A stretch of 64,000 bases of DNA from Verrucomicrobiota bacterium (GTDB lineage Bacteria > Verrucomicrobiota > Kiritimatiellia > CAIKKV01 > CAITUY01). Under the pieces are notes generated by a model. It saw nothing but the letters and a program-made list of their open reading frames with translations, was not told where the DNA came from and searched no databases. Each line of letters begins with the position of its first letter. Within the stretch, counting starts at the first letter, position 1. A program made the position numbers and the translations under genes. Shown piece by piece: positions 23,242 to 56,790 of this stretch. Location: assembly GCA_011391785.1 (NCBI GenBank), contig JAABPW010000228.1, positions 9,946-73,945 on the forward strand. The letters are read 5' to 3'.

Positions 23242-23244
23242 GGG

Positions 23245-25498: not shown

Positions 25499-25575
25499 GG
25501 CGGGGACGACGGGGCTCGAACCCGCGACCTCTGCCGTGACAGGGCAGCGCTCTAACCAATTGAGCTACGTCCCCC
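25499..25575 (-). tRNA. tRNA-Asp (anticodon GUC)
   Basis: minus-strand sequence GGGGACGTAGCTCAATTGGTTAGAGCGCTGCCCTGTCACGGCAGAGGTCGCGGGTTCGAGCCCCGTCGTCCCCGCCA; cloverleaf with 7-bp acceptor stem, anticodon loop CTGTCAC and encoded CCA. Confidence 0.9.
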
Positions 25576-31456: not shown

Positions 31457-32022
31457 TACTCTTCCCACTTTTCACGGCGTCCGGCGCGGTCTATCCGTGC
31501 TTTCTCGATGACATTCTCGCCCCGCTCGACCCGGTTTCTGATGGATTGCACGAGTTGGGTTTGCGTGCCCACCACTTCCCTCATGATCCAGGATTGCTGG
31601 CCGATCATGGCGGGCTGGCGCTCCGCCGGCAGGCATTCAATAAGCAGGAAGACCAGGATGATGATGCCCGCCGCGGTCAATCCGCCGGCAATGGCGCCGC
31701 CGATCCGGTCCACCCAGGTGGTGAAGGTGATCTTCAGGACAAACCGCAGGAACGTGTAGAGCAGGGTTACCGTCAGGATGGGGACGGCGGTCAGGATGAT
31801 CATTGAGACGATACGGGCGGTGTCGGCCGACAGGGCAAAGCGTGCGGCTAGCCAGGACTGGCAGGGCTCGAGGCCATTGACCAGTGCCGCCCACACGGAG
31901 AGCGCCATCAGCAGGAGTGCCATTTGTGCGGAGAGGCCGTGTTTGAAGCCAACACCCATGCTGATGAGGATAATGATCAGCGCGACGATGTCGGCACTGT
32001 TGAAACCTGTTAGTTCGGTCAT
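31456..32022 (-). CDS. cvpA: CvpA-family membrane protein (colicin V production protein-like)
   Basis: 188 aa; four TM helices and a CvpA-like N-terminus (DIVALIIILISMGVGFKHG). Confidence 0.7.
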   Translation of the reverse strand: MTELTGFNSADIVALIIILISMGVGFKHGLSAQMALLLMALSVWAALVNGLEPCQSWLAARFALSADTARIVSMIILTAVPILTVTLLYTFLRFVLKITFTTWVDRIGGAIAGGLTAAGIIILVFLLIECLPAERQPAMIGQQSWIMREVVGTQTQLVQSIRNRVERGENVIEKARIDRAGRREKWEE

Positions 32023-32048
32023 GATGACACCTTCCCTTTCTGGTTTCC

Positions 32049-33260
32049 CTACTGATACTTGAGCCAGTTGCGGATTTCTTTCGACTTGGGGCTGTCCGGC
32101 TGCAATTTCAGGTAGGTTGAGAGTTCCTTGCGGGCAAGGGACAGCTTGGTTTTGTCTTTCTTGTACAGGAGGCCGAGTGCCAGATGGGCGTCGGCATGAT
32201 TGGGGTTTTTTCCGATGATGGCGGTCAATTGCTTGACGGCCTCATCATCCTTGCCCTGTTCCGTCATCACCAGCGCCAGCATGTAACGGGCATCCGTCAT
32301 TGCCGGGGAGAGCTTGAGCACGGTTTCGAAGGAGGTGCGGGCGGCTTGAAGATCCTGCCTTGTGCGATACAGGAGGCCGAGATTGAAATGGGCGCGTGTG
32401 AGGCCCGGGTCGTTTCGGATGGCCCGCGTATATTCCTGCAGGGCCTTTTCATAGTTCCCTGCCTGATGGAATTGCGTTGCCAGCCGGCAGGCTTCCAGCG
32501 CTTCGGCGGGATTACGCGGCAGGGGCGGAGCGCTGGTGGCGGGCTCGGTGGTGGCGGGAGCGGGAATGCTGCGGGTTATGTGGGCCGGTGTGGTGCGGGA
32601 GGTGACGGGCTGGGGGGCTCCGGTCGGGGGCGCTACCGTTTTGGCGGCCATGGCGGAGCGGGCGATCACGGCGTGGGAATCCGTGGGGGCGACCGCGAGA
32701 TAACGCTGGAAATATTTCCGTCCCTCGGCAGGGTTTTTCAGCCAGTCCCGCTCGATCACGGCCAGGTTGAACAAGGCCGGAGGGTAGCTTGGATTCCGGG
32801 CGAGCACCTGGAGCAGGCGCGTTGTGGCGGATGCGGCGTTCGTTGTATTGATGTCCACCAGCGCCAGCGCGGTCTGGATCGCGGGGGAGTTCGGAGTGCG
32901 CCGGTCCGCCTCGTTCAGGACAAGGCCCGTCTCATGCCACCGGTTGTTGTCCGACAAGATGGCCGCCATATACTCGAGGGCCCGGGAATCCTCCGGGGCC
33001 AGGTCGGCGACCTTGGAGAAGCCGGCAAGCGCGTCATCGGTCCGGCCGTTTTCAAGGTGAATAATGGCGAGGTTCATGATGGCCGAGGCATTCGAAGGAT
33101 CCTGTTCCAGAATCTGGATCAGGAGTGTCTCGGCGTGTTTCAAGTCTCCAGCTTCAATTGCCTTGATGCTGGTGGAGACGGGGTCCCGCCCGCAACCCGG
33201 GGTCAGCAGGAGGGCGGCGAGAAGACTTAAAGCCGGAAATAGGATGGTATTCGTTTTCAT
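32049..33260 (-). CDS. TPR-repeat lipoprotein
   Basis: 403 aa; lipobox LTPGCG; multiple tetratricopeptide repeats. Confidence 0.75.
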   Translation of the reverse strand: MKTNTILFPALSLLAALLLTPGCGRDPVSTSIKAIEAGDLKHAETLLIQILEQDPSNASAIMNLAIIHLENGRTDDALAGFSKVADLAPEDSRALEYMAAILSDNNRWHETGLVLNEADRRTPNSPAIQTALALVDINTTNAASATTRLLQVLARNPSYPPALFNLAVIERDWLKNPAEGRKYFQRYLAVAPTDSHAVIARSAMAAKTVAPPTGAPQPVTSRTTPAHITRSIPAPATTEPATSAPPLPRNPAEALEACRLATQFHQAGNYEKALQEYTRAIRNDPGLTRAHFNLGLLYRTRQDLQAARTSFETVLKLSPAMTDARYMLALVMTEQGKDDEAVKQLTAIIGKNPNHADAHLALGLLYKKDKTKLSLARKELSTYLKLQPDSPKSKEIRNWLKYQ

Positions 33261-33316
33261 GATTATTGGAAGTCAACTATACCATGCGTTGCCCGCTTGG
33301 CAAATATTCCTGCAGC

Positions 33317-36300
33317 CTACTTTTTGCTGATGGCTGCCAGCGCGGCGGTGGCGGCATGGCGGACGTCGGGTGCGTTCTGGAGGTTTTCAGCGGTTTTGAT
33401 GAGGATAGGCAGCGCCTTCTTGTCCTTGATCATGCCCAATGCCCATGCGGCGGCGGCGCGGTAGCAGGGAGTCAGGTCGTTGTGCAGGAAGATGACGCCG
33501 GGGCCGAGGGGGTCCGGGTAACCGGATGCGGCTTCGGGCGGGGATTGCTCCAGGGTGGCAATGAGGGAATCAACCGAATCGGGGGCGGCCAGGTGGCCCA
33601 GGTTGCGTGCCAGGAAGAAGCAGACCCAGTTCTTGACGGGTAGTTTGTTGACAACGGGGATGCCGGTGCTGAATACCCGCTCTATCGGATCGTTCGGCCG
33701 GGTACGGTAACGTTCCAGTGCCGCGCGTATTCTCGGCTCGAATTTCCGGTCCCGGCAGGTGAGCGAGAGGATCTGCGCCGCCCGGTTCTCCAGGTCCGGC
33801 GTGCCGCCCCAGGCGCCATGGACCCTGGCAATGGCGCCGGCTATTTCCGGGGTTCGGCCTGCCTGGGGATCGCCGAGGATCGCGAGGCAGGTCTCCACCA
33901 CGGTCGAGTGGGGGTCGTTGCGCCGGATGACCCGCCCGGCCAGGGTTTCATAGTCATCGTTCCAGATGAAGAGCCCACGGTCAAAATCGGTGGGGACCGA
34001 GCGGATGATGTGCGTCAGGATGGCGCCGGCCTGCCGTGACTCCATCTTATCAAGCGCCTCGAGGATGAAGTAGTGGATGGGGGAAGCGTGGCAGGCCATG
34101 AGGGCCTCGTGATCGCCGTACCAGACGGTGTAGCGGATATAATCCTTGAGCTGGGTGAAGGTGTTGATCAGGAGGGATTCGATCCCGGGGGTGGCAATCA
34201 TTCCCAGCGCCTCCACGCAGGCTTCGGCCAGGAACAGGTTGCCTTTGTCCGGATCGCTGTTGCGGGAAAGGGTTTCGGCGAGCAAGGGCACGGCGTCCTT
34301 GTCCTTCAGGTATCCGAGTGACCGTGCAACAGCCTGTATCCTCCGGGGGTTCACCTCCGCGAGGGAATTGAATTGTGTGCCATCGCCCCTATGGCTTATA
34401 CGCCACCTTGGGAACGGGTTGAAGTCGCGTGCCGTGGTGAGGTAGGTCCGCAGGTGTTGCCTGGCTGTTTCGCCCCCGGTATGGCCAAGTGCCACGGCTG
34501 CCCTCCTCACAACGTTGCTGTCGGCATTGGCGAGACGCTGGACGAGATCCTGCTCGATGGCGTTCCAGTTGGTGGAACGGAACCAGTCGCGCCACTTTCC
34601 GGCTCCGTTGGCGGGGGTGCCCGGAGTGAGGAAGGCGTTGAAGGATTCGGTGTGGCCGGTAAGGTTTTCCAGCGCCACGGAGGCGGCCTGCGCGACAATC
34701 GGGTCGGGGTCGGTAAGGGCGGCCAGTAGCGGCGGGACGGAGTCACGGGTGCCGCAGGCCGCAAGCGCGAGCGCGGTCGCCACGCGAACCTCGCGGTTTG
34801 TTGTTCCGAGTTTTTCCGCCAGTGCCGGGGCGGCGGTCTGGTCGCGGAAGACCGCCAGCCGGTTGGCGGCGGAAATGCAGAGGGTGTCGTCGCTTCCCTT
34901 CAATTGCGCTATCAGGTCCGCCACTTCTGTTTTGCCGCTCATGTCGATGTCTGCCGCGGCCCTGTGGCGGTTGAGTCCCGCGACTTCGCGGAAGCGGTCG
35001 AACTGCAATTCCATAAGACCGGTGACGGCGGGATTGTTACCCCTGAAATGGAGCGGGCTGCCCTGGCCGAGGAGTTTCAGCGGCGGTGCCTGCAGCGCCT
35101 GGGCGCGGGTCGATGCCGTTGAGGGCGTCACCTGCCGTGTCTGGTGACAGCCGAGGCAACTGCGGTTCTCCCCGGGTTTCACGAAAATCCAGGACATCTC
35201 GTTGAGTTCGGAACGGCCCTCGGCATCGACGGCCTGGAGCGCGAGGGCGGTATCGGCCGGCACTTCGACAGAGAAGGAGCCGTCGGGAGCGAGGGGGACT
35301 GTGCCAAGATCGATCGTTTCATTGCCGGCATGGACGATATAGGAATGCGAGGAGCGGGTGGTGATGCCTTTTCCGGCGAGGACGCGGATGGCCCGGACAT
35401 GCGGCCAGCCAGCGGTGGTGTTTTTCGTGAAACGCGCGTTCTGGCAGAAGAGGATTCCTGTGGCAGCAGGTTTCCCGGTTTCATTTTTTCCGGTGGAGCT
35501 TGAAAGGACCGGGGGTCTGGGCCGTGGTCCGACGTAGGTGGGAGAATGGATTTGCATGTCAGGGCACTGAAGGATCGTCTGGGCCTTGTTGGCGGGGCTG
35601 CTGTCAGGATCGAGGATGGCGAGCCGGTTGTAGCTTCCGTTTCCGGCCAGGGTGCAAAGGAGTCTGCCATCGGGCAGGGAGGCGACATCCCCGGCATCGA
35701 TGCTGATGTTCTTCTGGTTATGCTGGCTACTGCCGGGGCGCCCGATGATGATTCCCCCTGCCGAGACGAAGGCCACCCGGCCATCGGGCATGGGGGCGGG
35801 GCTACCGCAGTAGTAGGCGCGCAGGCGGCCGCCGTATTCGGGGCCGAGATCCAGGCCGAACTCCGTGTAGCCGTGGGTACCGTCAGGGTGGATCGCCGAC
35901 AGGAGTGTCTCCACCTTCCCGCGGTCGAAGAAGTTGTCGGACCGGATGAAGAGGATCCGGCCGTCGGCCATTGCCCTGGCCTCGTTGTCGAAACCGAATG
36001 TGTGGGTGAGTGCCCGGATGTTGCCGCCATCGGCGTTCATGGTGAACAGGGACCGTGAGGGCGTGTTGTGGTATTCCTCGAAGGTGCCGATGCGGGTGGA
36101 GGTGAAGACGATGCGCCCGTCGGGGAGTTCGGCCGGGTCGATGTCGTGGAACGGCCCCTCGGTGAGGCGGGTGGGCTTTCCACCGGTTGCGGGAAGGCGG
36201 TAGATGTGGAAGAAGGGCTCGTTGTTGAGGGCCATGGCCACATAGATCCATTTGCCATCGAAGGAGCAACAGGGGGTGCCGATGGCGCCGGTCCCGGCAT

Positions 36301-37159
36301 CGAGGATCACTTTGGGTTTGGCGGTGGCGCTTACCGGGCTGAGAAGGTAGAGCTTGCGGCCCATCTTGATCGGGGAGGGCAGGTCGTGTTCCGGGAAAGC
36401 GCGTGATTTCCTGGCGGTGAACATGGTGACGCCGAGGCTGGTTGCACCGGCACCCCTGTAGTTTTCGCGGTAAAGGCTGCAGTCATCCCCGAGGTAGGCG
36501 ATGCCGCCCTGAGGCCACTTGAAGAGGGTGTCGGGCAGGATTGACTGATTGGCGCGGGGAAGTTCCGCGGTGGCGGGGATTTGCGTGATTTCGCCCCACG
36601 GGGCAACCCCATGGTTTCCGATGGCGTGAGCGGGCTTCCAAGTGGAGTCATTGAACCCGGGGGCTGTCCAGTTCCTGACTTCCACGATGCTGCATTTCCA
36701 GCTGTCATCACTGACAAGTTCGATCTGCTGGCCGTCGGCCAGGGTGATTGAGAGTTTCGCGATGAATCCGGCCGGTCCCATGGCGGTATTGCTGGCCTTG
36801 ACGGCAATCAGGTTGATGCCGGGTTTGAACAGCGAGGTCAGGTTGATCCGCTTGGGCTCGCTCCAGTTCTCGCTTTCACAGGCGACTTTGCCGTTGACGT
36901 GGAGGGTAAACAGGTTGTCGGCGGAGGCAAGGATTTCCACCGATTTGATTTTTGACTTTTTCGGGAGGGACACCGGCAGGCGCAGGTAAACGGTGCCGCC
37001 TTCGAAGGAGTTGAGGGTTGTCTCGGCGGCAGGCTGGTGCCAGATCCATTTCGCCCCGGTGAAGCCGGGGGATTGCGCCCGCACGGGCGAGAGCATGGCG
37101 GAGAATGCCAGGCACAGTGTGACGAGTGGAATCCTGTTGCGGCCAGGTTTTGTTTTCAT
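33317..37159 (-). CDS. giant secreted protein: N-terminal galactose-binding-like domain, TolB-like beta-propeller, single CxxCH motif, C-terminal HEAT/PBS-lyase-like repeats
   Basis: ~1280 aa from MKTKPGRNRIPLVTLCLAFSAMLSPVRAQ (RBS GGGAGA); PD40-like blades (PDGRIVFTSTR, ADGRILF, PDGRVAFVS); SCLGCHQ; HEAT repeats (PPLLAALTDPDPIVAQAASVAL...). Confidence 0.75.
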   Translation of the reverse strand: MKTKPGRNRIPLVTLCLAFSAMLSPVRAQSPGFTGAKWIWHQPAAETTLNSFEGGTVYLRLPVSLPKKSKIKSVEILASADNLFTLHVNGKVACESENWSEPKRINLTSLFKPGINLIAVKASNTAMGPAGFIAKLSITLADGQQIELVSDDSWKCSIVEVRNWTAPGFNDSTWKPAHAIGNHGVAPWGEITQIPATAELPRANQSILPDTLFKWPQGGIAYLGDDCSLYRENYRGAGATSLGVTMFTARKSRAFPEHDLPSPIKMGRKLYLLSPVSATAKPKVILDAGTGAIGTPCCSFDGKWIYVAMALNNEPFFHIYRLPATGGKPTRLTEGPFHDIDPAELPDGRIVFTSTRIGTFEEYHNTPSRSLFTMNADGGNIRALTHTFGFDNEARAMADGRILFIRSDNFFDRGKVETLLSAIHPDGTHGYTEFGLDLGPEYGGRLRAYYCGSPAPMPDGRVAFVSAGGIIIGRPGSSQHNQKNISIDAGDVASLPDGRLLCTLAGNGSYNRLAILDPDSSPANKAQTILQCPDMQIHSPTYVGPRPRPPVLSSSTGKNETGKPAATGILFCQNARFTKNTTAGWPHVRAIRVLAGKGITTRSSHSYIVHAGNETIDLGTVPLAPDGSFSVEVPADTALALQAVDAEGRSELNEMSWIFVKPGENRSCLGCHQTRQVTPSTASTRAQALQAPPLKLLGQGSPLHFRGNNPAVTGLMELQFDRFREVAGLNRHRAAADIDMSGKTEVADLIAQLKGSDDTLCISAANRLAVFRDQTAAPALAEKLGTTNREVRVATALALAACGTRDSVPPLLAALTDPDPIVAQAASVALENLTGHTESFNAFLTPGTPANGAGKWRDWFRSTNWNAIEQDLVQRLANADSNVVRRAAVALGHTGGETARQHLRTYLTTARDFNPFPRWRISHRGDGTQFNSLAEVNPRRIQAVARSLGYLKDKDAVPLLAETLSRNSDPDKGNLFLAEACVEALGMIATPGIESLLINTFTQLKDYIRYTVWYGDHEALMACHASPIHYFILEALDKMESRQAGAILTHIIRSVPTDFDRGLFIWNDDYETLAGRVIRRNDPHSTVVETCLAILGDPQAGRTPEIAGAIARVHGAWGGTPDLENRAAQILSLTCRDRKFEPRIRAALERYRTRPNDPIERVFSTGIPVVNKLPVKNWVCFFLARNLGHLAAPDSVDSLIATLEQSPPEAASGYPDPLGPGVIFLHNDLTPCYRAAAAWALGMIKDKKALPILIKTAENLQNAPDVRHAATAALAAISKK

Positions 37160-37206
37160 CGTGTCTCCCTTGTCGTTAAAGATATGAAGTGCCTTCCGGG
37201 GTGCGA

Positions 37207-37980
37207 TTAATGTTTCAGGCGTGCGGTAATGCGGGCTGCCGCATCGGTAGCCATGCGGCCGAAGTGTTTGAATTTCTCCTTCCGGATTCTCTCCAGCGGA
37301 CCTGTGATCACGATGGCGGCGACGAGCCGGTCGTCGTCGGCGAAGACCGGTGCGGCAACACAATGGGATCCCTCGATCTCCTCGGCCAGATCGAGGGTGT
37401 ATCCTTCCTTGCGTGCCAGCTCCAACTCCTTTTCCAGCTTGGCGGGGGTGGTGATGGTCCGGGCCGTGAACCGTTCGAAGGACTGCGCCGCGAGTTTGCG
37501 TTTCCGTTCCGCTTCGTCGCCAAAGGCGAGGAAAACCTTGCCGGGAGCGTTGCAGTACAAGGGGATTCGCACCCCGATATCATAGATGATGCGGATGGGC
37601 TGGCGTGATGGCTGGAAGTAGACCAGCACGGCCTCGTTGCCGCTGGGGATGAGGAGTCCGACGCTTTCCCCGCTCTCGTGGCGGAGCGCCTTGATTTCAG
37701 GGGTGGCCTCGTCCACGAGGTTCTTGCCGGCGGCATTCGGGACGGCGAGTTCCAGGAGCTTGGTGCCGAGGGAATAGGTTTTGGATTCTGTTTTATGCGT
37801 GTAACCGCGGGAGGATAGGTCCCCCAGGATCCGGAAGATCATGTTCTTGCTGATGCCGAGCAAACGGTGGATGTCGGTCAGGGTGAGCCCTGCGGGGTGC
37901 TGGCTGAGCAGCTCGAGTATGGCCAGGCATCGATCCGTACTGGGGGCAAGTGCTTTGTTGTTTATCGGAATACGCGTCAT
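37207..37980 (-). CDS. IclR-family transcriptional regulator
   Basis: 257 aa; N-terminal wHTH (LAILELLSQHPAGLTLTDIHRLLGISKNMIFRIL) and a C-terminal IclR effector domain; 47-bp gap to the downstream giant gene. Confidence 0.88.
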   Translation of the reverse strand: MTRIPINNKALAPSTDRCLAILELLSQHPAGLTLTDIHRLLGISKNMIFRILGDLSSRGYTHKTESKTYSLGTKLLELAVPNAAGKNLVDEATPEIKALRHESGESVGLLIPSGNEAVLVYFQPSRQPIRIIYDIGVRIPLYCNAPGKVFLAFGDEAERKRKLAAQSFERFTARTITTPAKLEKELELARKEGYTLDLAEEIEGSHCVAAPVFADDDRLVAAIVITGPLERIRKEKFKHFGRMATDAAARITARLKH

Positions 37981-38061
37981 CGGGGTCCCTCCTGTAATTC
38001 TTTATGTAGAATGTGTTCCTCCTGTAGAATAGTCAAGGGAGAGGAGGGGTGGAATTGAAAA

Positions 38062-38085
38062 TCCCCCCTTTCGGGTGGTGCTAAT
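38062..38085 (+). promoter_or_regulatory. conserved 24-nt upstream motif, copy A (TCCCCCCTTTCGGGTGGTGCTAAT)
   Basis: 23/24 nt identical to 48376-48399; lies in the IclR/propeller-A divergent intergenic region, ~28 nt upstream of the 38113 ATG. Confidence 0.6.
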
Positions 38086-38112
38086 CCCCGGAGGGATGAA
38101 CTAGAATGTGGC

Positions 38113-40584
38113 ATGTTTGAATCATGTCATGGAGCCGCAGCACTGTTGCTTGCGGTGATGCTGGTGGGGGGGGATGGCCTTGGGGCCGAGGACCGGTCTT
38201 CCGACGTGGATTCGCCCGGGGCGCGTGTGGCCTTGCGGAAGGCCATTGAGGATTTGTCGGAGACATTCCAGGACCGGTATCCGCGCGGGAAGGAATTCCT
38301 CGCCCGACTTGACAAGCTGAGCGATAAGAAGGCCTTTCTTGCGCTTCAGCGTGAGGCCCTGCTGGCTAATCCCCTGATCTCCGGCCAACCCCTCCTGTTT
38401 GTGGTGCGTCACCAGTACGCGGCGGATCACCACAACACCGAGACCATGTTTCAAACGGGTGAAATCAATACCAAAAAGTTCGAGGGGGGCGGCGCCCTGA
38501 AGTCGATTGATTTCGCCCGGGGCGGCGAGGTCAGGACCCTCGTCGATGCCGGTGACGCGGGCGTGGTGCGGGACCCGGATGTGTATTTCGACGGGAAGAA
38601 GATCCTCTTTTCGATGCGCCGGAACATCCGCGAGGATTATCACCTTTACGAGGTGCAGGCGGATGGGACGGGGCTCCGGCAGCTGACTTCCGCGGCCGGC
38701 GTGTTTGACATAGATCCGCTTTACTTGCCTGACGACAGTATTGTCTTCACGTCCTCCCGGGAACCCAAGTACTGCGGGTGCAACCGCCACATCATGGGCA
38801 ACCTTTTCCGGATGGATTCGGATGGCGCCAACATTCATCAGATCGGGAAGAGCACCTTGCACGAGGGGCATGGCAACCTGTTGCCCGATGGCCGTATCCT
38901 CTATGATCGCTGGGAGTATGTGGACCGTAACTTCGGGAGCGCCCAGGGACTCTGGACGGTCAATCCCGATGGAACCTATCACCAGATCTACTGGGGCAAC
39001 AATACGGCCAGTCCCGGCGCCGTGCTTGAGGGGCGGGTGATTCCCGGAACAGACAAGGTGCTCTGTACGTTTTCGTCCTGCCATGACCGGCCCTGGGGGG
39101 CGCTGGCGATCATTGACCGGCAGCGCGGGGTTGACGGGCGAGATCCTGTGGTGTGGACCTGGCCGGCGTACGCCATTAACCTGGTGGATGAGGACGGGAA
39201 CTACGATTCGTTCGGGAAAATCAAACTCAAGTACGAGGATCCTTATCCCCTCGGCGCGAAATATTTCCTATGTTCCCGGATGAGCGGAAAGGGAGCGGGC
39301 ATGGGGCTTTACCTGGTGGATTTGTTCGGCAATGAAATCCTGCTTCACGCGGAAGCGCCAGGCTGTTTCGACCCGATGCCGATAGTGGCCCGGACCCGTC
39401 CCCCGGTGATTCCCGTCCGGCGCGATTATACTGGGAATGAAGGAACATTTTTCATCCAGGACGTGTATCAGGGGACGCATTTGAAAGGGGTCAAGCGCGG
39501 GGACGTGAAGTTCCTGCGGGTGATTGAGGTTCCGGAAAAGCGGGGGTGGACCTATTCTGACTGGGCGGGGCAGGGGGCCATCGCCCCGGCGATGAACTGG
39601 TTCGATTTCAACAGCAAGCGCATCCTGGGGACGGTTCCGGTGGCGGAGGATGGCTCGGCGCATTTCGTGGTGCCGTCCGACACGTTCGTCTATTTCCAGC
39701 TGCTGGACAAGGACGGCCTGATGATCCAGTCCATGCGCAGTGGAACGATCATCCAGTCCGGGGAGCGCCAGGGTTGCGTCGGGTGCCACGAGAACCGGAT
39801 AACGGTTCCGATGACGTCGGCGCCCAAAAACCTCATCGCGTTGCAGCAGCCGCCGGCCCGGTTGACGGGGTGGCATGGCCCCGCGCGGTACTTCAACTAC
39901 CGGGCCGAAGTTCAGCCCGTTTTTGACCGGAACTGCGTGAGTTGCCACGATTTCGGAAAACCGGCGGGGAAGGTGCTGAATCTCGCAGGCGACCGGGGCA
40001 TGGTGTTTAACGCCTCGTATAGCAGCTTGTGGAACAACAACATGATGAAGGTGATTTCGGCCGGCCCCTCGGCAATCCAGGAAGCCTTGACCTGGGGTGC
40101 CCGCGTCAGCCCCCTGGTGAAGACGCTGAAACGGGGGCACAAGGACGTGAAGTTATCGGCCGAGGACATGGACCGGATTGTGACCTGGATTGATATCAAC
40201 GCTCCTTATTATCCCTCCTATTACTGTGCCCATCCCGCGAATGCGTTCGGGCGGTCTCCGCTCGACCCGGGTCAGCTTGATCAGCTCGAATCGCTGGGGA
40301 TTGACTTGCAGAAGAAGAAAAACATCAGCCGGGTGAGTTTTGACAGGCCTGAAAAGAGCCTTTGTCTGGAGGAGATGGGGGGCCCGGACGGGCACCGGTA
40401 CAAGGCGGTGCTGGCGATCCTCAAGGCCGGGCAGGCGGAATTGGCGGCGCACCCCGAGGCGGACGCAGCGGGATTCGTTCCGTGCGCCAAGGATCAGGAG
40501 CGGGAAGAAAAATATGAAGCCCGCCGCCAGACGGAATTGAGAAACCGGCGGAGTATTGCCACCGGCGCCAAGGCGCACGATTAG
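38113..40584 (+). CDS. secreted TolB-like beta-propeller protein with two CxxCH motifs (PSCyt1-like), paralog A
   Basis: 823 aa; close paralog of 52456-54792 (shared blocks REPKYCGCNRHIMGNLFRMDSDGANI, MRSGTIIQSGERQGCVGCHENR, NCVSCHDFGKPAGKVLNLAGD, IVTWIDINAPYYPSY). Confidence 0.8.
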   Translation: MFESCHGAAALLLAVMLVGGDGLGAEDRSSDVDSPGARVALRKAIEDLSETFQDRYPRGKEFLARLDKLSDKKAFLALQREALLANPLISGQPLLFVVRHQYAADHHNTETMFQTGEINTKKFEGGGALKSIDFARGGEVRTLVDAGDAGVVRDPDVYFDGKKILFSMRRNIREDYHLYEVQADGTGLRQLTSAAGVFDIDPLYLPDDSIVFTSSREPKYCGCNRHIMGNLFRMDSDGANIHQIGKSTLHEGHGNLLPDGRILYDRWEYVDRNFGSAQGLWTVNPDGTYHQIYWGNNTASPGAVLEGRVIPGTDKVLCTFSSCHDRPWGALAIIDRQRGVDGRDPVVWTWPAYAINLVDEDGNYDSFGKIKLKYEDPYPLGAKYFLCSRMSGKGAGMGLYLVDLFGNEILLHAEAPGCFDPMPIVARTRPPVIPVRRDYTGNEGTFFIQDVYQGTHLKGVKRGDVKFLRVIEVPEKRGWTYSDWAGQGAIAPAMNWFDFNSKRILGTVPVAEDGSAHFVVPSDTFVYFQLLDKDGLMIQSMRSGTIIQSGERQGCVGCHENRITVPMTSAPKNLIALQQPPARLTGWHGPARYFNYRAEVQPVFDRNCVSCHDFGKPAGKVLNLAGDRGMVFNASYSSLWNNNMMKVISAGPSAIQEALTWGARVSPLVKTLKRGHKDVKLSAEDMDRIVTWIDINAPYYPSYYCAHPANAFGRSPLDPGQLDQLESLGIDLQKKKNISRVSFDRPEKSLCLEEMGGPDGHRYKAVLAILKAGQAELAAHPEADAAGFVPCAKDQEREEKYEARRQTELRNRRSIATGAKAHD

Positions 40585-40772
40585 AATCCGTTGCACTTTT
40601 CCTTGAAATTGCCAGTCTCTTTAGTGCTTTAAACTTTGTATTGCAAAGTACTCTGCATTTTAATAGTGTTGATGGCGAAAGCAGCGGTAATGCCGGGCAG
40701 GGAGCCTGGACTGGGAGCGGCTGCTCGGGAAACCAGAAGGGGCGCGCAGCCCTGTTTGAAAAGGAGCCGGTC

Positions 40773-41528
40773 ATGAGCGAGATGGATGCAACCAATGGAA
40801 TTCCGGATGCGGGAGGCTATGGGGGGATGAGCGGGCAGGGCAGGACAACGCCCATGATCGCGTTTGAGGGGGACTATCATGCCATGAGGGGGATCGTGGG
40901 TGGGGCCGCGATTATCGAGGCGGTGCTCAAGCATCCGGCAGCGCTGGTCTACGAATTGACGAAGGGACGGGGCCGCTCCGTGGCGGTATGGCTGGTGTTG
41001 GTGGCCGGGCTGTGTCTGCTGGCCTATGGCGTGATCATGGGATCCTACAAGGGAGGCGTCATGTATCTCGTCGCCCCGGCCAAGATGGTCATGGGCGTGT
41101 TCCTTAGTTCGCTGCTGTGCCTGCCCAGCCTGTATATCTTCAGCAGCATGGGCGGGAGCCGGCAGACGCTTGGGGAAACGGCCGGACTTTTGCTGCTATG
41201 CCAGGCCCTTTCCGGACTGCTGCTGCTCGGCTTTGCCCCGATCGCCTGGGTGTTTTCACAATCCACCAGCGCGCTGGCGTTCATGGGGTTTCTCCATCTG
41301 GCGATGTGGCTGTTGGCTACGTTTTTTGCGGTTCGGTTGCTATCCCTCGCCCTGGAGTTCCTCAACAAGCGCAAGATGGGCGTCCTGAAGGTCTGGGCCG
41401 TGATCTTCGTTGTCGTGACGCTGCAGATGAGTGCCGTGCTGCGTCCCCTTATTGACAAGCCCGGGGCTACCCTGATTGAGCACGAGAAGATGTTTTTCAT
41501 GACCCATTGGGGCCGATGCATGGACTGA
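40773..41528 (+). CDS. hypothetical polytopic membrane protein
   Basis: ~251 aa from MSEMDATNG (RBS AAAAGGAG); 5-6 TM helices; paralogous to the next gene. Confidence 0.6.
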   Translation: MSEMDATNGIPDAGGYGGMSGQGRTTPMIAFEGDYHAMRGIVGGAAIIEAVLKHPAALVYELTKGRGRSVAVWLVLVAGLCLLAYGVIMGSYKGGVMYLVAPAKMVMGVFLSSLLCLPSLYIFSSMGGSRQTLGETAGLLLLCQALSGLLLLGFAPIAWVFSQSTSALAFMGFLHLAMWLLATFFAVRLLSLALEFLNKRKMGVLKVWAVIFVVVTLQMSAVLRPLIDKPGATLIEHEKMFFMTHWGRCMD

Positions 41529-41558
41529 TGAGGGTCGCAGCAAGGGAGGACCCCTGAT

Positions 41559-42296
41559 ATGGAAGAATCAAAACACCGTCCTGTAACACTGGCCGCCATG
41601 TGTCGCATGGATGCGGAGTTTGTCGGTTGCCTCGCGGAGGGCCGGAACACGCGGCCCATGCTCATCACGGCGCTGGGGGGGATCCTGATTGGAACCCTGG
41701 CCTACGGGGTGGTTTTCGGGTTATGGCGGGCACCCCTGCAGGCCGTGTTCTCCGGCTTCAAGCTGCCGCTGCTCTTTCTCCTGGTGGTGGCGGCAAGCGG
41801 CGTGATCAATGCCATGCTGGCGCAGGTCATGGGTGCCAGACTGGCCCTGAAGACGGTGGTTCTGCTGATGTTGGTGGGGATGGCGGTCACCGCCCTGCTG
41901 CTGGGTGCCCTGAGCCCGGTGGTGTGGTTCTTTGTGGCGCAAGCCCCGCCACCCGACCCCCTTGTGTTGGGGCTGGCCAAGGATAACGTGGCGGCGGCAA
42001 AATCAATGGGAGTGTATCGTGTCATCCTCGTCACCCATGTCGCGATCATCGGGGTGTGCGGGATTGTAGGGAATGCCCGGTTGTTCCGGATGATACGGGC
42101 CGTGACCGGGTCGGAGACCATGGCCTGGCGGCTTCTGCTCACCTGGATCATGGTTTCGGGTTTTGTGGGGTGTGAATTGTCCTGGCTCCTGAGTCCCTAC
42201 TTGTGCAATCCCCTTACTCCGCCGCACATTGTGAACCGGCAGTATTTTGAGAGTAATTTCTATGAGTATGTCTATCACGCATTACAGGGAAGGTAG
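41559..42296 (+). CDS. hypothetical polytopic membrane protein (tandem paralog of 40773-41528)
   Basis: 245 aa; RBS AGGGAGG; similar TM topology. Confidence 0.6.
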   Translation: MEESKHRPVTLAAMCRMDAEFVGCLAEGRNTRPMLITALGGILIGTLAYGVVFGLWRAPLQAVFSGFKLPLLFLLVVAASGVINAMLAQVMGARLALKTVVLLMLVGMAVTALLLGALSPVVWFFVAQAPPPDPLVLGLAKDNVAAAKSMGVYRVILVTHVAIIGVCGIVGNARLFRMIRAVTGSETMAWRLLLTWIMVSGFVGCELSWLLSPYLCNPLTPPHIVNRQYFESNFYEYVYHALQGR

Positions 42297-42353: not shown

Positions 42354-43997
42354 TTGTATCCTGACGGCGGGGATGCGGGTATTTTGGGAGCAAGAGCACG
42401 AAAACCGCAGAGGGGCATTGTCTTGGATATAGTCATCAGTAATTTGCGAATCGCCGTTGAACGGGACGGGCTGGAGGAATATGGCCAGGTCGCATCAGCC
42501 AGGCTGAATCTCGGTGTGTCCGATCTCAACGTTGTCAAAATTCTCGGCAAATCACTGGATGCCAAGGATGAGGAGCAGTTTTTCTTCCTCGTATCCATTG
42601 TCGCAAGGGTGCCGGATTCTTTCGCCAACGAGGAGGGGTTTCCCCTTCATGCGGAGGAGGCCAAGCCGGGAAGGACCGCCATCGTTTCCGCGGAGCGGCC
42701 TGTGATCATCGGCTTCGGTCCTGCTGGGATGTTTGCCGCGCTTGAACTTCTCGACTATGGAGTTAAACCCCTGATCTTTGAGCGGGGCAAAAGAATCGAA
42801 GAGCGTGATCTCGATATCCGGGGATTTATCCGCGACAGGACGCTCGATCCCGAGTCCAATATCCAGTTTGGTGAAGGCGGGGCCGGTTCCTATTCGGATG
42901 GAAAACTGTTCTCGCGAATCAATAATTCGCCTCATGCCAACAAGGTGCTGGATACCCTCATCCGGTTTGGCGCGCCCGGGGAAATCGGTTACCTCCGCAA
43001 GCCCCATCTGGGGACCGACGTTCTGCGCGGGATTGTCCGCAATATCAGGAATCATATCCTCTCCCGTGGCGGCGAGATCCATTATTCCTCGCGGTTGACG
43101 GATGTGCTTGTGTCCGGCGGCCTGGTGACTGGGGTCGTGATCAACGGCGCGGCCGAGTATCCTGCGCCAACCCTTTTTCTCGCCGTGGGGCATTCGGCCC
43201 GCGATACCTTCCGGATGCTCCATGATAAGGGCGTGGCGCTCGAGCAAAAGCCTATTTCCGTCGGCGTGCGGATCGAGCATCCGGCGGAGGTCATCAACCT
43301 GGTGAGATATGGCAGGAAATATCAGGCTTTTCCCGGGCTTGGGGCCGCCACCTATTCCTTCAACCATACCAATCGAAAGACGGGAAGGGGGGTCGCCACC
43401 TTCTGCATGTGCCCCGGCGGCGAGATTGTGAATGCCTCGTCTGAAAACGGCTTGTTGGTCCTGAATGGCATGAGTTACGCCGCCAGGTCCTCGGCTTTCT
43501 CGAATTCAGCGCTGGTGGTGAGCTGCCGCACGGCGGATTATCCCTCGGCGCATCCACTGGCCGGACTCGATTTCCAGGCGGAAATTGAGCGGAAAGCGTT
43601 TGAGACGGCCGGGGAGGGATGGACCGTTCCCGCGCAGAATCTGATGGATTTTATCGGCGGGCGGGTCTCTGCCGGAATCAAGGTCAACTCGTACAAGATG
43701 GGCTCCACCGCCGTTGACCTCAACGTGGTTTTGCCGGGATTTGTTTGCGAGGAACTCTCGACCGCCTTTGCCCGATGGAAGGAGGAGGCGCCCTTGTTCG
43801 TTTCGGAGCAGGCCGTCCTGTTGTCGCCGGAAACACGGACTTCTTCGCCCGTGCGAATTCGGCGCAACGAAAATTACGGGTCCGTCTCGCTGGAAAATCT
43901 GGTCCCGATCGGCGAAGGGGCGGGCTATGCCGGCGGAATCACCAGTTCGGCGATTGATGCCATCAAGGCGGTGGAGCGCCGCATGGCCGGGTCATAG
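42354..43997 (+). CDS. FAD-dependent oxidoreductase (COG2509-like uncharacterised FAD-dependent dehydrogenase)
   Basis: 547-aa ORF; dinucleotide-binding VIIGFGPAGMFAALEL; start uncertain (ATG 42354 or in-frame TTG 42423 preceded by AGAGGGG). Confidence 0.75.
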   Translation: MYPDGGDAGILGARARKPQRGIVLDIVISNLRIAVERDGLEEYGQVASARLNLGVSDLNVVKILGKSLDAKDEEQFFFLVSIVARVPDSFANEEGFPLHAEEAKPGRTAIVSAERPVIIGFGPAGMFAALELLDYGVKPLIFERGKRIEERDLDIRGFIRDRTLDPESNIQFGEGGAGSYSDGKLFSRINNSPHANKVLDTLIRFGAPGEIGYLRKPHLGTDVLRGIVRNIRNHILSRGGEIHYSSRLTDVLVSGGLVTGVVINGAAEYPAPTLFLAVGHSARDTFRMLHDKGVALEQKPISVGVRIEHPAEVINLVRYGRKYQAFPGLGAATYSFNHTNRKTGRGVATFCMCPGGEIVNASSENGLLVLNGMSYAARSSAFSNSALVVSCRTADYPSAHPLAGLDFQAEIERKAFETAGEGWTVPAQNLMDFIGGRVSAGIKVNSYKMGSTAVDLNVVLPGFVCEELSTAFARWKEEAPLFVSEQAVLLSPETRTSSPVRIRRNENYGSVSLENLVPIGEGAGYAGGITSSAIDAIKAVERRMAGS

Positions 43998-44335: not shown

Positions 44336-47300
44336 CTATGGCATAATCCCTACATTGATTTTGTAGTAGCCGCAGGGGGAGAGAGTGGCATTGGTGAAAC
44401 CACTTTTTGTCCAGGGAATATTGCTTTCTAGGCATTGAAACCCGCTTAGCAGATTGGTCGTCCAGTAAACCGAATAGACCCGTCCGGAAACGGCATTCCA
44501 GTCGAGTATATTGTTCGTGCCAGGCCGGTATCCTGTAATGCCAAACCCGGCCTCTTCGTCGTTTGGATCGAATCCGGCTAGATAGGCTTCGAGCACGGTG
44601 TTAATGCCGTTGGAGCAAACAGCATGCGGATTTCCATTTGTAATATTGCCGCAATGCTCCTGTTCCCAGGTATCAGGAATTCCATCACCATCGGCATCCC
44701 ACGGAATGATGGTGAGATGAAAGGTTTGCTGGATAGGCTGGTTCTCGGGTCCTGGCGGGCCCGGTAGACTGGCCATGACCAAAATATCCCATGTACCGGC
44801 AGTGGTCGGGATGCCCTCCAATTTGCCGTTTAAGGCGGATACCCCGGGCGGAAGGGTTGCCATCGGGTTGATGCTGATCTGAGAGGAAAGCGACGTCGCA
44901 AACATCCAAAGGAAACTGACCCCCACACGGGCGGAGGCCGAGCTGGCAGTGGTGAAAACAAGATTCGTAGCTCCTCCCCCGGACACCTCGATACGTGCGG
45001 GATCACTGGAGACAGTGCCACCCGGATTCCTGATCACAACACGAAACCAGCAGGTCGCGGAGAGTGCTGGCGTTGTTACGGTGTTGGATGTAGCGCCCTC
45101 AATGTCCGTATAAAGGCCGCCAAAGTCCGATGCCATCGACCACTGATAGGTCAGCAAATCGCTGGTGGCGGTAACGGAAAGTTGCGCCGTAGATCCCGCC
45201 GTAATTGGAGCGATGCTGCTGGCGGGCTGAACCGTGATCGTGGGGGCAGGATGAGCCGCATAGTAGGCGCTTTGGAGGGGGGCGAGCTCGTCGTTTCTAA
45301 GCCCTGTAACGACACTGTAACTGCCATCGTCCGCCAGAAAAGCCTCATCGGACAAATCCCAGAGTTGATCCATCACCGCGTTGAAACGGGCAATGAAGTC
45401 AGCCTCCGCCATGGAAAACCAGGACGGGACCTCCTCTATGATAACGGCCTTCATGGCCGTGATGCGATGGGGAAGATAATTGGTGGGGGCGTCAAGCCCG
45501 GGATCAGGCAGGTCCCTCATATTCGGCAAGCCGTTCCAATGAAGAATTTGATCCTGAGTCTCTCCTCCCACCGTGGGTTCCCCAGTCAAGCCGGTAAGGC
45601 GCACCGCCTCGCTCGTGTTGAGGAGCGCGTGATAGCGTGCAAGCTGGTTCGACACCGCTGAGGCATCGATCGGGTGCGCCTCTGAAGAATAGGTGGCCGC
45701 ATTGGTCCAGTCATCATAAACAAGCAAACGATGGAGGGAGCCACCCCCTTCGTAGGCTTGAACACGCGCAAAGGCCGCTTGATAGCCGTGCCACGCAGAG
45801 TCGTAAGCGTCTTTGAATGCCGGATTGGCCGTGACTAGAGCCTCATATTTCGACTGCAGGGCGCGAGCCGCAGTAAGTCCTGCGCTCCCCGGCGTGGCGA
45901 GAGCGGCGAGCAGCGAGGTTTTGTAAGTCGCCATCGAAAAGGCGTGCCCAACGACCAGCGTAAAGTCCTCCGGCGTTTGGGAGAAGTAACCGAGGCGCCC
46001 GATTGGCGGGTTCTGGGGTATGTTGAGAATAGGCTCCAACGGTCCGAGTACGAGGCCTGACGATGAAGCCAATGCGTTTTCCCACGCAAGGCCCTGTGCG
46101 ATCAAAACGGCTAAGGCGCCTTCTGCGGCGGAAAGATTTCCGTCGAGGTCAGCGGAAACGGAAGCGATTCCGCCGCTCCAGGTCACCACGGCGTCGGCCA
46201 GTTTATCCGCCAGCGTTTGCGCATTAACGAGTGACACGGGAAGCTGAGTCAAATACTGACCAAGACTAACCGCCAAATCCTCTGCCGGAGCTTGCCCCAT
46301 GCCGGGAATGTTGCTCCAGCCGGAGGAATAATAATTCTCAGGTGTGTCGCTATAGCCGCTCTCCTCGAGCAACGTCTTGAGCGAACGAGTCTGGTTCTGC
46401 AGGTTGAAAAGGGTGTTGTAGAGATCCGTGAGCGCCTCAACGTGAACAATTAACCCCGGCAATGCCGGGCCGGTAGGGGTCACATCGGTGACCCATTGTT
46501 GAATGGCGGCGCATGAGCTGATCGAGTCGTTATATGAAGCCGTCGTGTTGGCATCGAGGGTGTCTCCGTAAAAGGTGGAGATAAAGCCGGCGATCCGGGG
46601 CGTGGTGAGATAGACGGATACGCCGGTATCGATGGATGTTTGCCGCGCTTCGATCTGGGCCTGGCAGTTGGTGATTGCGGTGATCGGCGCCTCGGCGTTC
46701 CAGCGCGCAATCGCGGCATTGCGCACACGGGTTTGGTAGTCCGGAATGGGCTCGTTCTCTTCCTGCGGCGGGATTGGCTGATGAACCGGTGGCGAAACGG
46801 CGGACTGATTGGCGGCGAGTCTGGCCGCACCCTCTTCAAGCAGCTGCTGGGCCTTCAAGTCATCCAGCGCCGCAATGAGCGTAGCGAGCTCCTCTTCAAG
46901 GTGGCTCACCTCAGCTTGCGCCAGGGGGAGATCGAGGTCAGCATCGGTCTTGGCGGTGGCCGCTTCCGTGCTGAGGGCGTCCAGGGTCCCCAGGGCGGTG
47001 GCGATCGCGGTACGTACCATGCCGTTCTTGTAATAAATGACGCCAGGGCCTGTGGGGAGGATCACCTTGCCCGTTTGCTTCAGACAGGCACTGGCCACCG
47101 CATAGCCGTCCAACGCCAGTGTTTCCTGAACCAGGCCAAGGTTGGGGAAAGTGGCGCGTGCCGCATCAGAGACCGCCTTGATTTTTACATTGCGCGGACT
47201 ACAGAGCGTTTCGTCGTCAAGCCCCATCGCTTTTTTACGAGCATTATCGGCTCCGCTCTGAAGCGTTTCCAGCGCTACTTTACCCACGGCATTCCGGAGC

Positions 47301-47725
47301 CCGTGGGTAATCAGCGCATTGGCGGCAGTCTTGCCGATATTGATTTTATCAGCGACCTCGTTACAGGTCACGATGCCCAGTTGAATCGTGGTTTTGATGA
47401 GATTTTTGTTGTTGATATCCGCCAGCGTAACATCCGCGCTCCTGAGTTGCTGGCGAGCAGCGGTGATATCACTGGTTTTGGTGTCGAAATTGTCCAGAAA
47501 TTCGCTTAATATCGCAAGTTGGCGCTGTGCGGCGAGCAATTCAGCTTGCTTCGAATTGATCTCGCTCATCTTGGCCGTAATGGCACCTTCGTAGTCACCA
47601 GCGTTCGCCCCTGATTGTCCCTTGATCAGCGCCGAACCCTCGACATTAACGATTGCATTCACATCCTGAGCAATGCAGGCTGCGGTCATAGCCAGAATAA
47701 CTGCAGCTATAAAACTTCTCTTCAT
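44336..47725 (-). CDS. giant secreted hypothetical protein (N-terminal coiled coil, Ig-like region, thrombospondin-type Ca-binding DADGDGIPD motif)
   Basis: ~1130 aa from MKRSFIAAVILAMTAACIAQD; lower GC (~50%) than its surroundings; no catalytic motifs recognised. Confidence 0.7.
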   Translation of the reverse strand: MKRSFIAAVILAMTAACIAQDVNAIVNVEGSALIKGQSGANAGDYEGAITAKMSEINSKQAELLAAQRQLAILSEFLDNFDTKTSDITAARQQLRSADVTLADINNKNLIKTTIQLGIVTCNEVADKINIGKTAANALITHGLRNAVGKVALETLQSGADNARKKAMGLDDETLCSPRNVKIKAVSDAARATFPNLGLVQETLALDGYAVASACLKQTGKVILPTGPGVIYYKNGMVRTAIATALGTLDALSTEAATAKTDADLDLPLAQAEVSHLEEELATLIAALDDLKAQQLLEEGAARLAANQSAVSPPVHQPIPPQEENEPIPDYQTRVRNAAIARWNAEAPITAITNCQAQIEARQTSIDTGVSVYLTTPRIAGFISTFYGDTLDANTTASYNDSISSCAAIQQWVTDVTPTGPALPGLIVHVEALTDLYNTLFNLQNQTRSLKTLLEESGYSDTPENYYSSGWSNIPGMGQAPAEDLAVSLGQYLTQLPVSLVNAQTLADKLADAVVTWSGGIASVSADLDGNLSAAEGALAVLIAQGLAWENALASSSGLVLGPLEPILNIPQNPPIGRLGYFSQTPEDFTLVVGHAFSMATYKTSLLAALATPGSAGLTAARALQSKYEALVTANPAFKDAYDSAWHGYQAAFARVQAYEGGGSLHRLLVYDDWTNAATYSSEAHPIDASAVSNQLARYHALLNTSEAVRLTGLTGEPTVGGETQDQILHWNGLPNMRDLPDPGLDAPTNYLPHRITAMKAVIIEEVPSWFSMAEADFIARFNAVMDQLWDLSDEAFLADDGSYSVVTGLRNDELAPLQSAYYAAHPAPTITVQPASSIAPITAGSTAQLSVTATSDLLTYQWSMASDFGGLYTDIEGATSNTVTTPALSATCWFRVVIRNPGGTVSSDPARIEVSGGGATNLVFTTASSASARVGVSFLWMFATSLSSQISINPMATLPPGVSALNGKLEGIPTTAGTWDILVMASLPGPPGPENQPIQQTFHLTIIPWDADGDGIPDTWEQEHCGNITNGNPHAVCSNGINTVLEAYLAGFDPNDEEAGFGITGYRPGTNNILDWNAVSGRVYSVYWTTNLLSGFQCLESNIPWTKSGFTNATLSPCGYYKINVGIMP

Positions 47726-47790
47726 TTCTGTCCTCCTGACGTCATGGCTCACTGGCGACGAGCCTGACAGTGCGGCCACTTGTTTGCAGC

Positions 47791-48399: not shown

Positions 48400-48480
48400 T
48401 GGTGATAATATCTGGCTGGATTCACTATAGTTCGGTTCACAAAAGGTTCCCGATATGGGGCCGTGGGGAGATACCGGACT

Positions 48481-56770: not shown

Positions 56771-56790
56771 TGGGGGGAGGGGGAACCACA

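Follow-up and report, generated by a model that had tools for sequence, protein, structure and literature searches.

Hydrazine synthase, the enzyme of bacteria that oxidize ammonium anaerobically (anammox bacteria), is to our knowledge among the most unusual enzymes known, and it was long thought to be without relatives. Here we describe genes that are among its closest non-anammox kin, found in a 64-kb stretch of DNA (the window; 64,000 nucleotides of contig JAABPW010000228.1, assembly GCA_011391785.1) from a Verrucomicrobiota bacterium of the Kiritimatiellia. The reference system is HzsABC of Kuenenia stuttgartiensis (PDB 5C2V, EC 1.7.2.7), and homologues outside the anammox bacteria have been described bioinformatically on two occasions. 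Dalcin Martins et al. 2023 reported hzsA-like genes 5' of fused hzsBC-like genes in Phycisphaerae and suggested a broader enzyme family with other substrates (PMC10732223). Hagglund et al. 2025 described co-located alpha and fused beta-gamma homologues, assigned to clades I to IV, that are without key residues and were judged not to be hydrazine synthases (PMC12758564). The window carries the same pairing of alpha and fused beta-gamma genes with the same loss of catalytic residues, and its system is a further example of the kind described in 2023 and 2025.

The following features of the window are central to the analysis (aa, amino acids; E values are from Pfam unless stated).

33317-37159, minus strand: giant HzsA-related paralog, 1280 aa (HEAT_2 2.5e-29, HZS_alpha 2.5e-15, PD40 8.9e-8)
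37207-37980, minus strand: IclR-family transcription regulator, 257 aa (IclR_C 2.7e-38, HTH_IclR 1.8e-11)
38005-38030, no strand assigned: candidate operator for the IclR regulator, in which ATTCTACA, as the minus strand reads, occurs as two direct copies 18 bp apart
38113-40584, plus strand: paralog A, 823 aa; propeller, HZS_alpha middle domain and C-terminal cytochrome-c-like domain (HZS_alpha 2.5e-32)
48463-49485, plus strand: aldo-keto reductase (AKR), overlapping the start of paralog C by 17 nt (Aldo_ket_red 5.6e-62)
49469-52399, plus strand: paralog C, 976 aa; heme motifs CAGCH at aa 538 and CTGCH at aa 588 (HZS_alpha 4.6e-30, FGE-sulfatase 1.4e-29)
52456-54792, plus strand: paralog B, 778 aa, directly 5' of the beta-gamma gene; heme motifs CNGCH at aa 505 and CLKCH at aa 557 (HZS_alpha 3.5e-31)
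54881-56770, plus strand: fused HzsB-HzsC homologue (beta-gamma), 629 aa (NCBIfam hydrazine_BC 1.3e-46)
56767-57873, plus strand: tandem RidA / FkbO-Hyg5-like protein, 368 aa (Ribonuc_L-PSP 1.1e-16, FkbO_Hyg5-like_N 7.1e-8)

Alpha-type paralogs and a fused beta-gamma partner

An earlier note on this stretch, made from the sequence alone, had described the giant and paralogs A, B and C as a family of secreted propeller/CxxCH proteins and had placed an IclR regulator among them. All five open reading frames (ORFs) exist as placed, with the coordinates and strands listed above, and the blocks shared by the four large proteins reflect true homology. Pairwise blastp aligned A with B at 49% identity over 760 aa (E 0), A with C at 36% over 712 aa (E 1.5e-107) and B with C at 33% (E 2.8e-90), while the giant aligned with A, B and C at 26 to 27% identity over 435 to 468 aa (E 1e-19 to 1e-30). 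Shuffled controls reached E values of 0.09 to 8 only, so the shared blocks are not compositional, the outcome that the earlier note had named as refuting its reading. In a four-way alignment, invariant columns run over the propeller and the middle domain and take in the first C-x-G-C-H motif, and tblastn found no fifth copy of the family in the window. Paralogs A and B are less alike than had been thought, the description "near-identical over long stretches" giving way to a longest identical run of 11 aa, a best 50-residue window of 80% and a DNA identity of 67 to 78% in three patches only.

PF18582 (HZS_alpha), which represents the alpha-subunit middle domain of hydrazine synthase, is matched by all four proteins with scores well over the Pfam gathering value of 26.6 bits (giant, 57.2; A, 111.8; C, 104.5; B, 108.1). 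Paralogs A, B and C carry two CxxCH motifs each, at the spacing expected for HzsA, and the giant carries one. By inspection, each of the four has an N-terminal hydrophobic signal-like segment, which fits the export needed for c-type heme attachment; the proposed family of exported heme-motif and propeller proteins is a real one. Paralog A has the motifs CVGCH (aa 555-559, nt 39775-39789) and CVSCH (aa 608-612, nt 39934-39948); its public gene call (P0001) begins 15 codons later and gives 808 aa. It matched Kuenenia HzsA (5c2v_A) at 1.7e-11 in phmmer and at 4.2e-21 with a 24-sequence family profile. An AlphaFold2 model of A (predicted local distance difference test score 77.8, predicted template modeling score 0.80) had 5c2v_A as its sole full-length PDB match (E 4e-29, TM 0.57/0.61, 780 aligned columns, 19% identity), and the remaining structural matches were restricted to the TolB-like propeller. 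On these profile, sequence and model matches, the giant, A, B and C are distant relatives of the anammox hydrazine synthase alpha subunit.

Two of the paralogs carry additional domains. Paralog C has a C-terminal domain with the fold of formylglycine-generating enzyme (FGE) fused to its HzsA-related core (aa 765-969; Pfam FGE-sulfatase, 104 bits), the best PDB matches being PvdO, ToxD and PorK, with true FGEs also matched. The copper-binding catalytic cysteine pair of FGE, which from human FGE Cys336/Cys341 we take to lie after a GGS[YF] motif, has no counterpart here: the corresponding segment of C, RGGSFYDRPKRATASSYRG, contains no cysteine, and the alignments to true FGEs end before this region. 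An active FGE that would mature the nearby sulfatases was considered and rejected because the pair is absent.

The giant, confirmed as a 1280-aa protein with HEAT repeats, is composed in order of a signal peptide, a CBM67-like lectin domain (aa 28-199, nt 36563-37078), a PD40/TolB-like propeller, an HZS_alpha domain with a single heme motif, CLGCH (aa 668-672, nt 35144-35158), and HEAT/PBS-lyase-type repeats (aa 747-1278) that replace the second cytochrome domain over ~530 aa. Residues 28-199 matched the fungal lectins 6t0q, 6t1d and 6kbj (E ~5e-26), and the N-terminus matched the CBM67 region of the Streptomyces rhamnosidase SaRha78A (3w5m residues 130-303; E 7.9e-24) and positions 129-301 of NCBIfam rhamnosid_Stmyc (E 2e-28). 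Its orthologues form a family of 1300 to 1370 aa annotated only as "HEAT repeat domain-containing protein". These matches place the giant in a conserved family of orthologues that combines the CBM67-like lectin domain, the propeller, one heme motif and HEAT repeats.

The gene at 54881-56770, overlooked by the earlier note, encodes what its profile and fold matches identify as the matching beta-gamma partner of the alpha paralogs. The protein comprises a signal peptide, a seven-bladed YVTN-type propeller and a diheme domain like those of cytochrome c peroxidase (CCP) and MauG (CASCH at aa 435, CATCH at aa 543), and the public gene call places the start at 54911 instead of 54881, giving 619 aa. 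It covers positions 14-589 of the 690 of the hydrazine_BC profile and matched 5c2v_B (HzsB) at 2.5e-33 and 5c2v_C (HzsC) at 1e-25 in phmmer, the diheme domain alone matching the latter at 1.9e-27. Foldseek returned 5c2v_B as the top match of the modelled propeller (TM 0.86, rmsd 3.3 A). The C-terminal 200 aa share two CxxCH motifs with the diheme CCP/MauG family, to which they are weakly matched (the CCPs 3o5c, 1.1e-5, and 1iqc, 2.2e-4, and CCP_MauG), but the domain is far nearer to HzsC (1.9e-27), is fused to a propeller and, unlike CCP/MauG, has no Trp at the position aligned to the inter-heme Trp/His144, which an invariant Met475 adjoins. The homology to hydrazine synthase, together with this fused gene and its operon, is the key to the identity of the family and had gone unrecognized.

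From spacing and orientation, we infer that 48463-57873 is one co-oriented operon encoding the AKR, C, B, beta-gamma and the RidA-like protein. The AKR is likely its first gene; it scored 319 bits against a YdjG-like cutoff of 550, and an AKR gene also adjoins the module in 4 of 80 beta-gamma loci and in the metagenomic locus L002. The C/B operon is the only place in the window where an alpha gene adjoins the fused beta-gamma gene (B ends at 54792, beta-gamma starts at 54881/54911). The RidA-like protein is without a signal peptide, its ORF overlaps the beta-gamma stop by 4 nt, and it is the last gene of the conserved module.

Side by side with Kuenenia HzsABC, paralogs A, B and C are built of the same three alpha parts with two heme-c motifs, whereas the giant has the first heme motif only and, where the C-terminal domain would be, HEAT repeats. 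Common to HzsB/HzsC and the beta-gamma protein are a seven-bladed propeller into which a loop is inserted and a diheme CCP/MauG-like module; here the two are joined in one protein, as they are in Scalindua, and the co-location of the genes is likewise shared. Identity is only ~19 to 26%, however, and unlike in HzsABC the alpha genes precede beta-gamma in the window, the alpha subunit occurs as several paralogs that bear additional domains (FGE-fold, CBM67-like, HEAT), and the carriers are heterotrophic bacteria of the Planctomycetes-Verrucomicrobia-Chlamydiae (PVC) group with no anammox genes nearby.

Catalytic residues, conservation and distribution

By every test run, the window system appears not to be a hydrazine synthase, since catalytic residues are lost and the NCBIfam equivalog cutoffs are missed by a wide margin. 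The alpha-type paralogs scored 29.7, 57.4, 35.7 and 73.1 bits against a hydrazine_alpha cutoff of 800, and beta-gamma scored 159.1, 103.6 and 96.5 bits against cutoffs of 1250 for hydrazine_BC, 560 for beta and 625 for gamma. The alpha-I CxxCH histidine of the Kuenenia enzyme binds zinc, and the iron is ligated by Tyr591, which lies four residues further on (PMC12607021, PMC12758564). No Tyr follows this motif in the window paralogs, which read HENRIT (A), HENRLS (B), HEKQNT (C) and HQTRQV (giant). Gamma Cys165 forms a third thioether to heme gamma-I, and gamma Asp168 lies near the iron as the proposed proton donor (PMC12607021); both are absent here, the CGRDP segment that holds them (5c2v_C chain 126-130, gamma 165-169) being an insertion unmatched in beta-gamma in the phmmer alignment. 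The acidic residue aligned to gamma Glu122 is kept as Asp454, and the gamma-I CxxCH with its flanking WQSCASCHPD block is invariant. No anammox genes of the hydroxylamine oxidoreductase/hydrazine dehydrogenase (HAO/HDH) type and no nitrite reductase were found in the window or among the recurrent neighbors of the 80 loci, and the remainder of the window is housekeeping in nature (PurL, MetX/W, AroB, CorA, pyruvate:ferredoxin oxidoreductase [PFOR] subunits, IMPDH, EF-G, LeuB, DnaG). Cryptic anammox was rejected on residues, scores and gene context.

The strongest conservation lies elsewhere. The hydrazine synthase beta loop reaches the tunnel between the two active hemes, the reference feature being loop 245-260 with its Mg-binding Glu253. 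The corresponding propeller loop of beta-gamma, R252-T267 (RYQLPTTQLERGW), is nearly invariant and is the most conserved stretch of the family, with RYQLPTTQ-ERGW-NT invariant in 15 diverse sequences. Glu261 of beta-gamma aligns to one of the two Glu of the Kuenenia CEAENG segment, either of which may be Glu253. The conservation of this loop argues that assembly of alpha with beta-gamma, and an internal path within it, has been kept.

Relatives of beta-gamma number in the thousands at 55 to 77% identity. In a scan of one genome per species they occurred in at least 575 species representatives, mostly of Planctomycetota (Pirellulales, Sedimentisphaerales, Phycisphaerae), Verrucomicrobiota, Lentisphaerota/Victivallales, Kiritimatiellia and Hydrogenedentota, plus a few others; the closest (72 to 73%) bear the label Verrucomicrobiota or PVC group. 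When 1.84 billion cluster representatives (50% identity clusters) were searched with a profile, 2575 family clusters were found at E<=1e-30, and close homologues carry the NCBI name "HzsA-related protein".

We counted recurring neighbors in 80 beta-gamma loci, the denominators being the loci with enough flanking sequence where stated. A co-oriented alpha-like gene ended within 1.5 kb 5' of beta-gamma in 42 of 58 loci with enough upstream sequence, an FGE-fold domain was encoded 5' of it in 20/45, and a RidA-like gene started within 600 bp 3' of it in 31/69, as well as in L002 to L004. Unbiased clustering of ORFs from the 80 loci gave beta-gamma, alpha-like and RidA-like proteins as the only three recurrent families, sulfatases coming next (12 loci). 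The same module is present on metagenomic contigs with close A homologues (L002 to L005). The operon core, as far as these loci represent it, recurs across PVC phyla and beyond, and its members are strongly conserved between phyla, at 55 to 75% identity. Alpha copy number varies widely between genomes, as L002 carries five HZS_alpha genes in tandem (5162-17654), which stand beside AKR and GDSL lipase genes and are divergent from beta-gamma/RidA-like.

The earlier note had read the four paralogs as an expanded family. The best relatives of A in other phyla are 57 to 73% identical to it, A-type genes beside beta-gamma genes are 55 to 72% identical, C-type orthologues 5' of the beta-gamma gene in many loci are 45 to 74% identical to C, and the giant has full-length orthologues at 57 to 75%. 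Every paralog is nearer to its orthologues in other phyla than to its siblings in the window (26 to 49%), and on these identities the four are ancient subfamilies with no recent local expansion; a recent local duplication was rejected on this ground.

With respect to the clades of Hagglund et al., the window resembles clade IV in lacking FG-GAP/CRTAC1 and ABC-transporter genes, in having a beta-gamma protein free of additional heme motifs at its N-terminus, in keeping the second alpha heme motif and in having Sedimentisphaerales among its relatives (PMC12758564). Pirellulales relatives are also among the matches of the window proteins. By elimination, and not from a tree, the locus fits clade IV. 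A word search of the main text of that paper found no mention of FGE/sulfatase, HEAT, RidA, regulators or carbohydrates. By word search, the main texts of the 2023 and 2025 papers make no mention of an FGE-fold fusion, a RidA-like partner, a CBM67-like/HEAT giant subfamily, an IclR partner of such a giant or fusions to glycoside hydrolase (GH) and carbohydrate-binding module (CBM) domains. What the present analysis adds is a conserved four-gene module with FGE-fold and RidA-like parts, a giant subfamily with a lectin domain and a regulator, and a glycan-related pattern of fusions.

The IclR regulator and functional interpretation

The assignment of 37207-37980 to the IclR family holds, with both domains above their Pfam cutoffs (HTH_IclR, 44.1 bits against 22; IclR_C, 131.7 bits against 24), as does the arrangement described earlier, in which the gene lies 5' of the giant and co-oriented with it across a 47-bp gap (37160-37206) and is divergent from A, with 132 bp between the two starts (37981-38112). 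The protein shares the HTH_IclR and IclR_C architecture of KdgR, PcaR/PcaU, BhcR, IclR and AllR, and its gene, like those of IclR-family regulators, stands beside its likely target and 5' of it, and has a divergent neighbor. Unlike the named regulators, it falls below every equivalog cutoff; the best NCBIfam matches were BhcR, PcaR/PcaU and KdgR, the top score being 158 bits for BhcR against a cutoff of 350.

The pairing with the giant is found in 3 of 6 giant contexts, the IclR gene standing directly 5' of the giant on the same strand in the window itself, in L089 (giant 75% and IclR 79% identical to those of the window) and in L087 (65% and 68%); no IclR gene stands next to the giant orthologue in L086, L088 or L090. 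An IclR gene occurs near 3 of the 80 beta-gamma loci, and neither the N-terminal nor the HEAT parts of the giant were found in any of the 80. The suggestion of a regulated family is therefore retained in part: the IclR is plausibly a partner of the giant, as the conserved pairs suggest, and within the paralog family of the giant alone, rather than a general partner.

A search for the operator gave a candidate. The window contains the word ATTCTACA three times where 0.49 occurrences are expected, and the IclR/A spacer holds two of these copies; the region upstream of the L087 IclR gene has ATTCTACC ... AGTAGAAT as a related inverted pair. The repeat finder reported no inverted repeats in the IclR spacers, sigma-70 and terminator scans gave no excess over chance, and even with one mismatch allowed, neither the region 5' of the AKR-C-B operon nor any other spacer tested held a copy of ATTCTACA. 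The ATTCTACA pair is accordingly a candidate IclR operator only.

We consider it probable (roughly 0.75) that the operon encodes a periplasmic, non-anammox relative of hydrazine synthase and that A and the IclR-giant unit are separate alpha-type satellites of it. Under this proposal, the alpha-like and beta-gamma-like proteins would come together in the manner of hydrazine synthase, and the RYQLPTTQLERGW loop would lie at their interface. Electrons would enter via the gamma-II-like heme, and chemistry would take place at the gamma-I-like and/or the alpha-I-like heme, the latter presumably ligated here by the usual CxxCH histidine. Alternative substrate-recognition modules may come from the different alpha paralogs, and the reaction would be one other than hydrazine synthesis. 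The AKR would be cytoplasmic. The IclR regulator, answering a small molecule, would control the giant, and possibly the divergent A, through the ATTCTACA repeats.

Several observations weigh against parts of this proposal. Paralog A and the giant lie 14 to 21 kb from the beta-gamma gene and, because of this distance, may work alone or with other partners. An adjacent alpha gene is missing in 16 of 58 beta-gamma loci, and the gamma-like domain was modelled with low confidence. On the regulatory side, support for the operator motif comes from two loci, and an IclR neighbor is missing from half of the giant orthologues.

A first alternative, unlikely though not negligible, is that these proteins are a glycan-directed redox or binding machinery, in which the alpha propeller and the lectin/CBM or FGE-fold domains engage polysaccharides, possibly rhamnose-containing or sulfated ones, and the hemes, fed by the beta-gamma diheme module, perform or support an oxidative step. 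The CBM67-like domain at the start of the giant is in keeping with this, as are the neighbors of its orthologues, which adjoin a GH78 rhamnosidase with Gfo/Idh/MocA and ThuA genes in L088, a sulfatase in L087 and a Gfo/Idh/MocA gene in L086. The sulfatase genes in 12 of the 80 beta-gamma loci, the GDSL lipase gene inside the L002 cluster and the presence of KdgR among the closest named IclR relatives point the same way. PVC genomes are packed with genes for carbohydrate-active enzymes and sulfatases, however, and for this reason gene adjacency is weak evidence for a glycan role.

Fusions within single proteins bear on the same question. A survey of 47 long family members found HzsA-related cores joined to GH43, GH28, GH2 sugar-binding, NPCBM, Laminin_G_3 and F5/8-type C domains, with a second NPCBM and a GH123 plus GDSL esterase among further fusions (P0403, P0382, P0383 etc.). 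Other cores carry DUF4960, CCP_MauG, LanC-like or Mal s 1-like domains. Among the 47, no GH or CBM fusion turned up more than twice, and the commonest fusion, the FGE-fold domain (14 of 40 sampled family members), is without the FGE catalytic cysteines. We know of no heme-c glycan oxidase of this fold, which also counts against a glycan oxidase, and the conserved RidA and AKR partners are left unexplained. Taken together, the fusions, the lectin domain of the giant and the neighboring genes give a thin hint that some of the family, at least, has a role linked to glycans.

A broader version, which we regard as quite unlikely, would make HZS-like complexes a widespread periplasmic glycan redox machinery of PVC bacteria, in which a common diheme beta-gamma serves interchangeable alphas (lectin/CBM, GH, FGE-fold) and the IclR-controlled giant is the version for rhamnose-containing glycans. 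If true, this would mean that anammox hydrazine synthase evolved from a carbohydrate-processing ancestor.

It is improbable, in our assessment, that the complex acts on nitrogen oxides, with beta-gamma reducing nitric oxide (or handling hydroxylamine) at the gamma-I-like heme and alpha processing the product, an activity that would serve periplasmic NO/NH2OH detoxification or a cryptic N-N chemistry. Such a role would draw on the homology to all three hydrazine synthase subunits, on the invariance of the gamma-I CxxCH, WQSCASCHPD and the beta loop, on the conserved counterpart of gamma Glu122 (Asp454) and on the RidA-type protein as a conserved neighbor, the RidA family being one that deals with reactive imines and enamines. 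Novel anammox organisms were raised as a possibility for similar gene pairs by Dalcin Martins et al. (PMC10732223). Against this, gamma Cys165 and the proposed proton donor Asp168 are deleted (PMC12607021), alpha Tyr591 is absent, no HAO/HDH, nitrite reductase or other nitrogen-cycle gene was found in the window or among the recurrent neighbors, the at least 575 species representatives belong mostly to heterotrophic PVC lineages, and an anammox role was dismissed by Hagglund et al. because of the residues (PMC12758564).

That one IclR regulon governs the whole four-member family, as the earlier note had it, is very unlikely: the regulator does stand 47 bp from the giant and shares with A a 132-bp divergent spacer holding the ATTCTACA repeats, but no copy of the motif, even at one mismatch, lies 5' of the AKR-C-B operon, IclR genes are near only 3 of 80 beta-gamma loci, and the L087 IclR-giant pair has no A-type neighbor.

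The window combines a complete alpha and beta-gamma set with RidA-like and FGE-fold partners, extra alphas and a regulator-linked lectin giant, and it offers handles on function in the regulator, the candidate glycan ligands and the cultured carriers; the function would bear on the origin of anammox chemistry. Victivallis is a cultured carrier among the family matches, and Anaerohalosphaera, Thermogutta and Opitutus are cultured carriers reported by Hagglund et al. (PMC12758564).

Other genes of the window

Directly 3' of A, two ORFs at 40641-42296 on the plus strand (295/251 aa and 245 aa) were considered as conserved partners and rejected; they have no Pfam or NCBIfam match and a tblastn match in L001, from the same organism, only, and they appear from these searches to be lineage-specific. 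A FAD-dependent protein follows at 42354-43997 on the plus strand (PF21688 FAD-depend_C, 3.7e-61), which is absent from the other loci. An ORF of 1147 aa with a signal-peptide-like N-terminus, 44336-47779 on the minus strand, separates the A locus from the AKR-C-B operon. It has no Pfam match, its NCBIfam matches are weak and far below cutoff (ZirU, 1.2e-5; SpiroCoCo_C, 5.5e-3), and tblastn found no match to it in the 80 beta-gamma loci.

Farther from the family, 13864-15917 on the minus strand encodes PFOR-type subunits (POR_N, PFOR_II, TPP_enzyme_C), which point to an anaerobic or facultative lifestyle of the host. Two large multi-rhodanese proteins are encoded ~0.5 kb apart at 20679-25269 on the minus strand, one with a Sulf_transp membrane domain and three rhodanese domains and the other with a metallo-beta-lactamase fold and rhodanese domains, and they look like a sulfur-transfer or persulfide-handling pair. 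The single RNA gene found by Rfam and tRNA scans of the window is a tRNA-Asp (GTC) at 25498-25574 on the minus strand. GC skew is positive over the whole window and peaks at 0.11 to 0.18 over 32000-42000, even though the giant and the IclR gene are on the minus strand.

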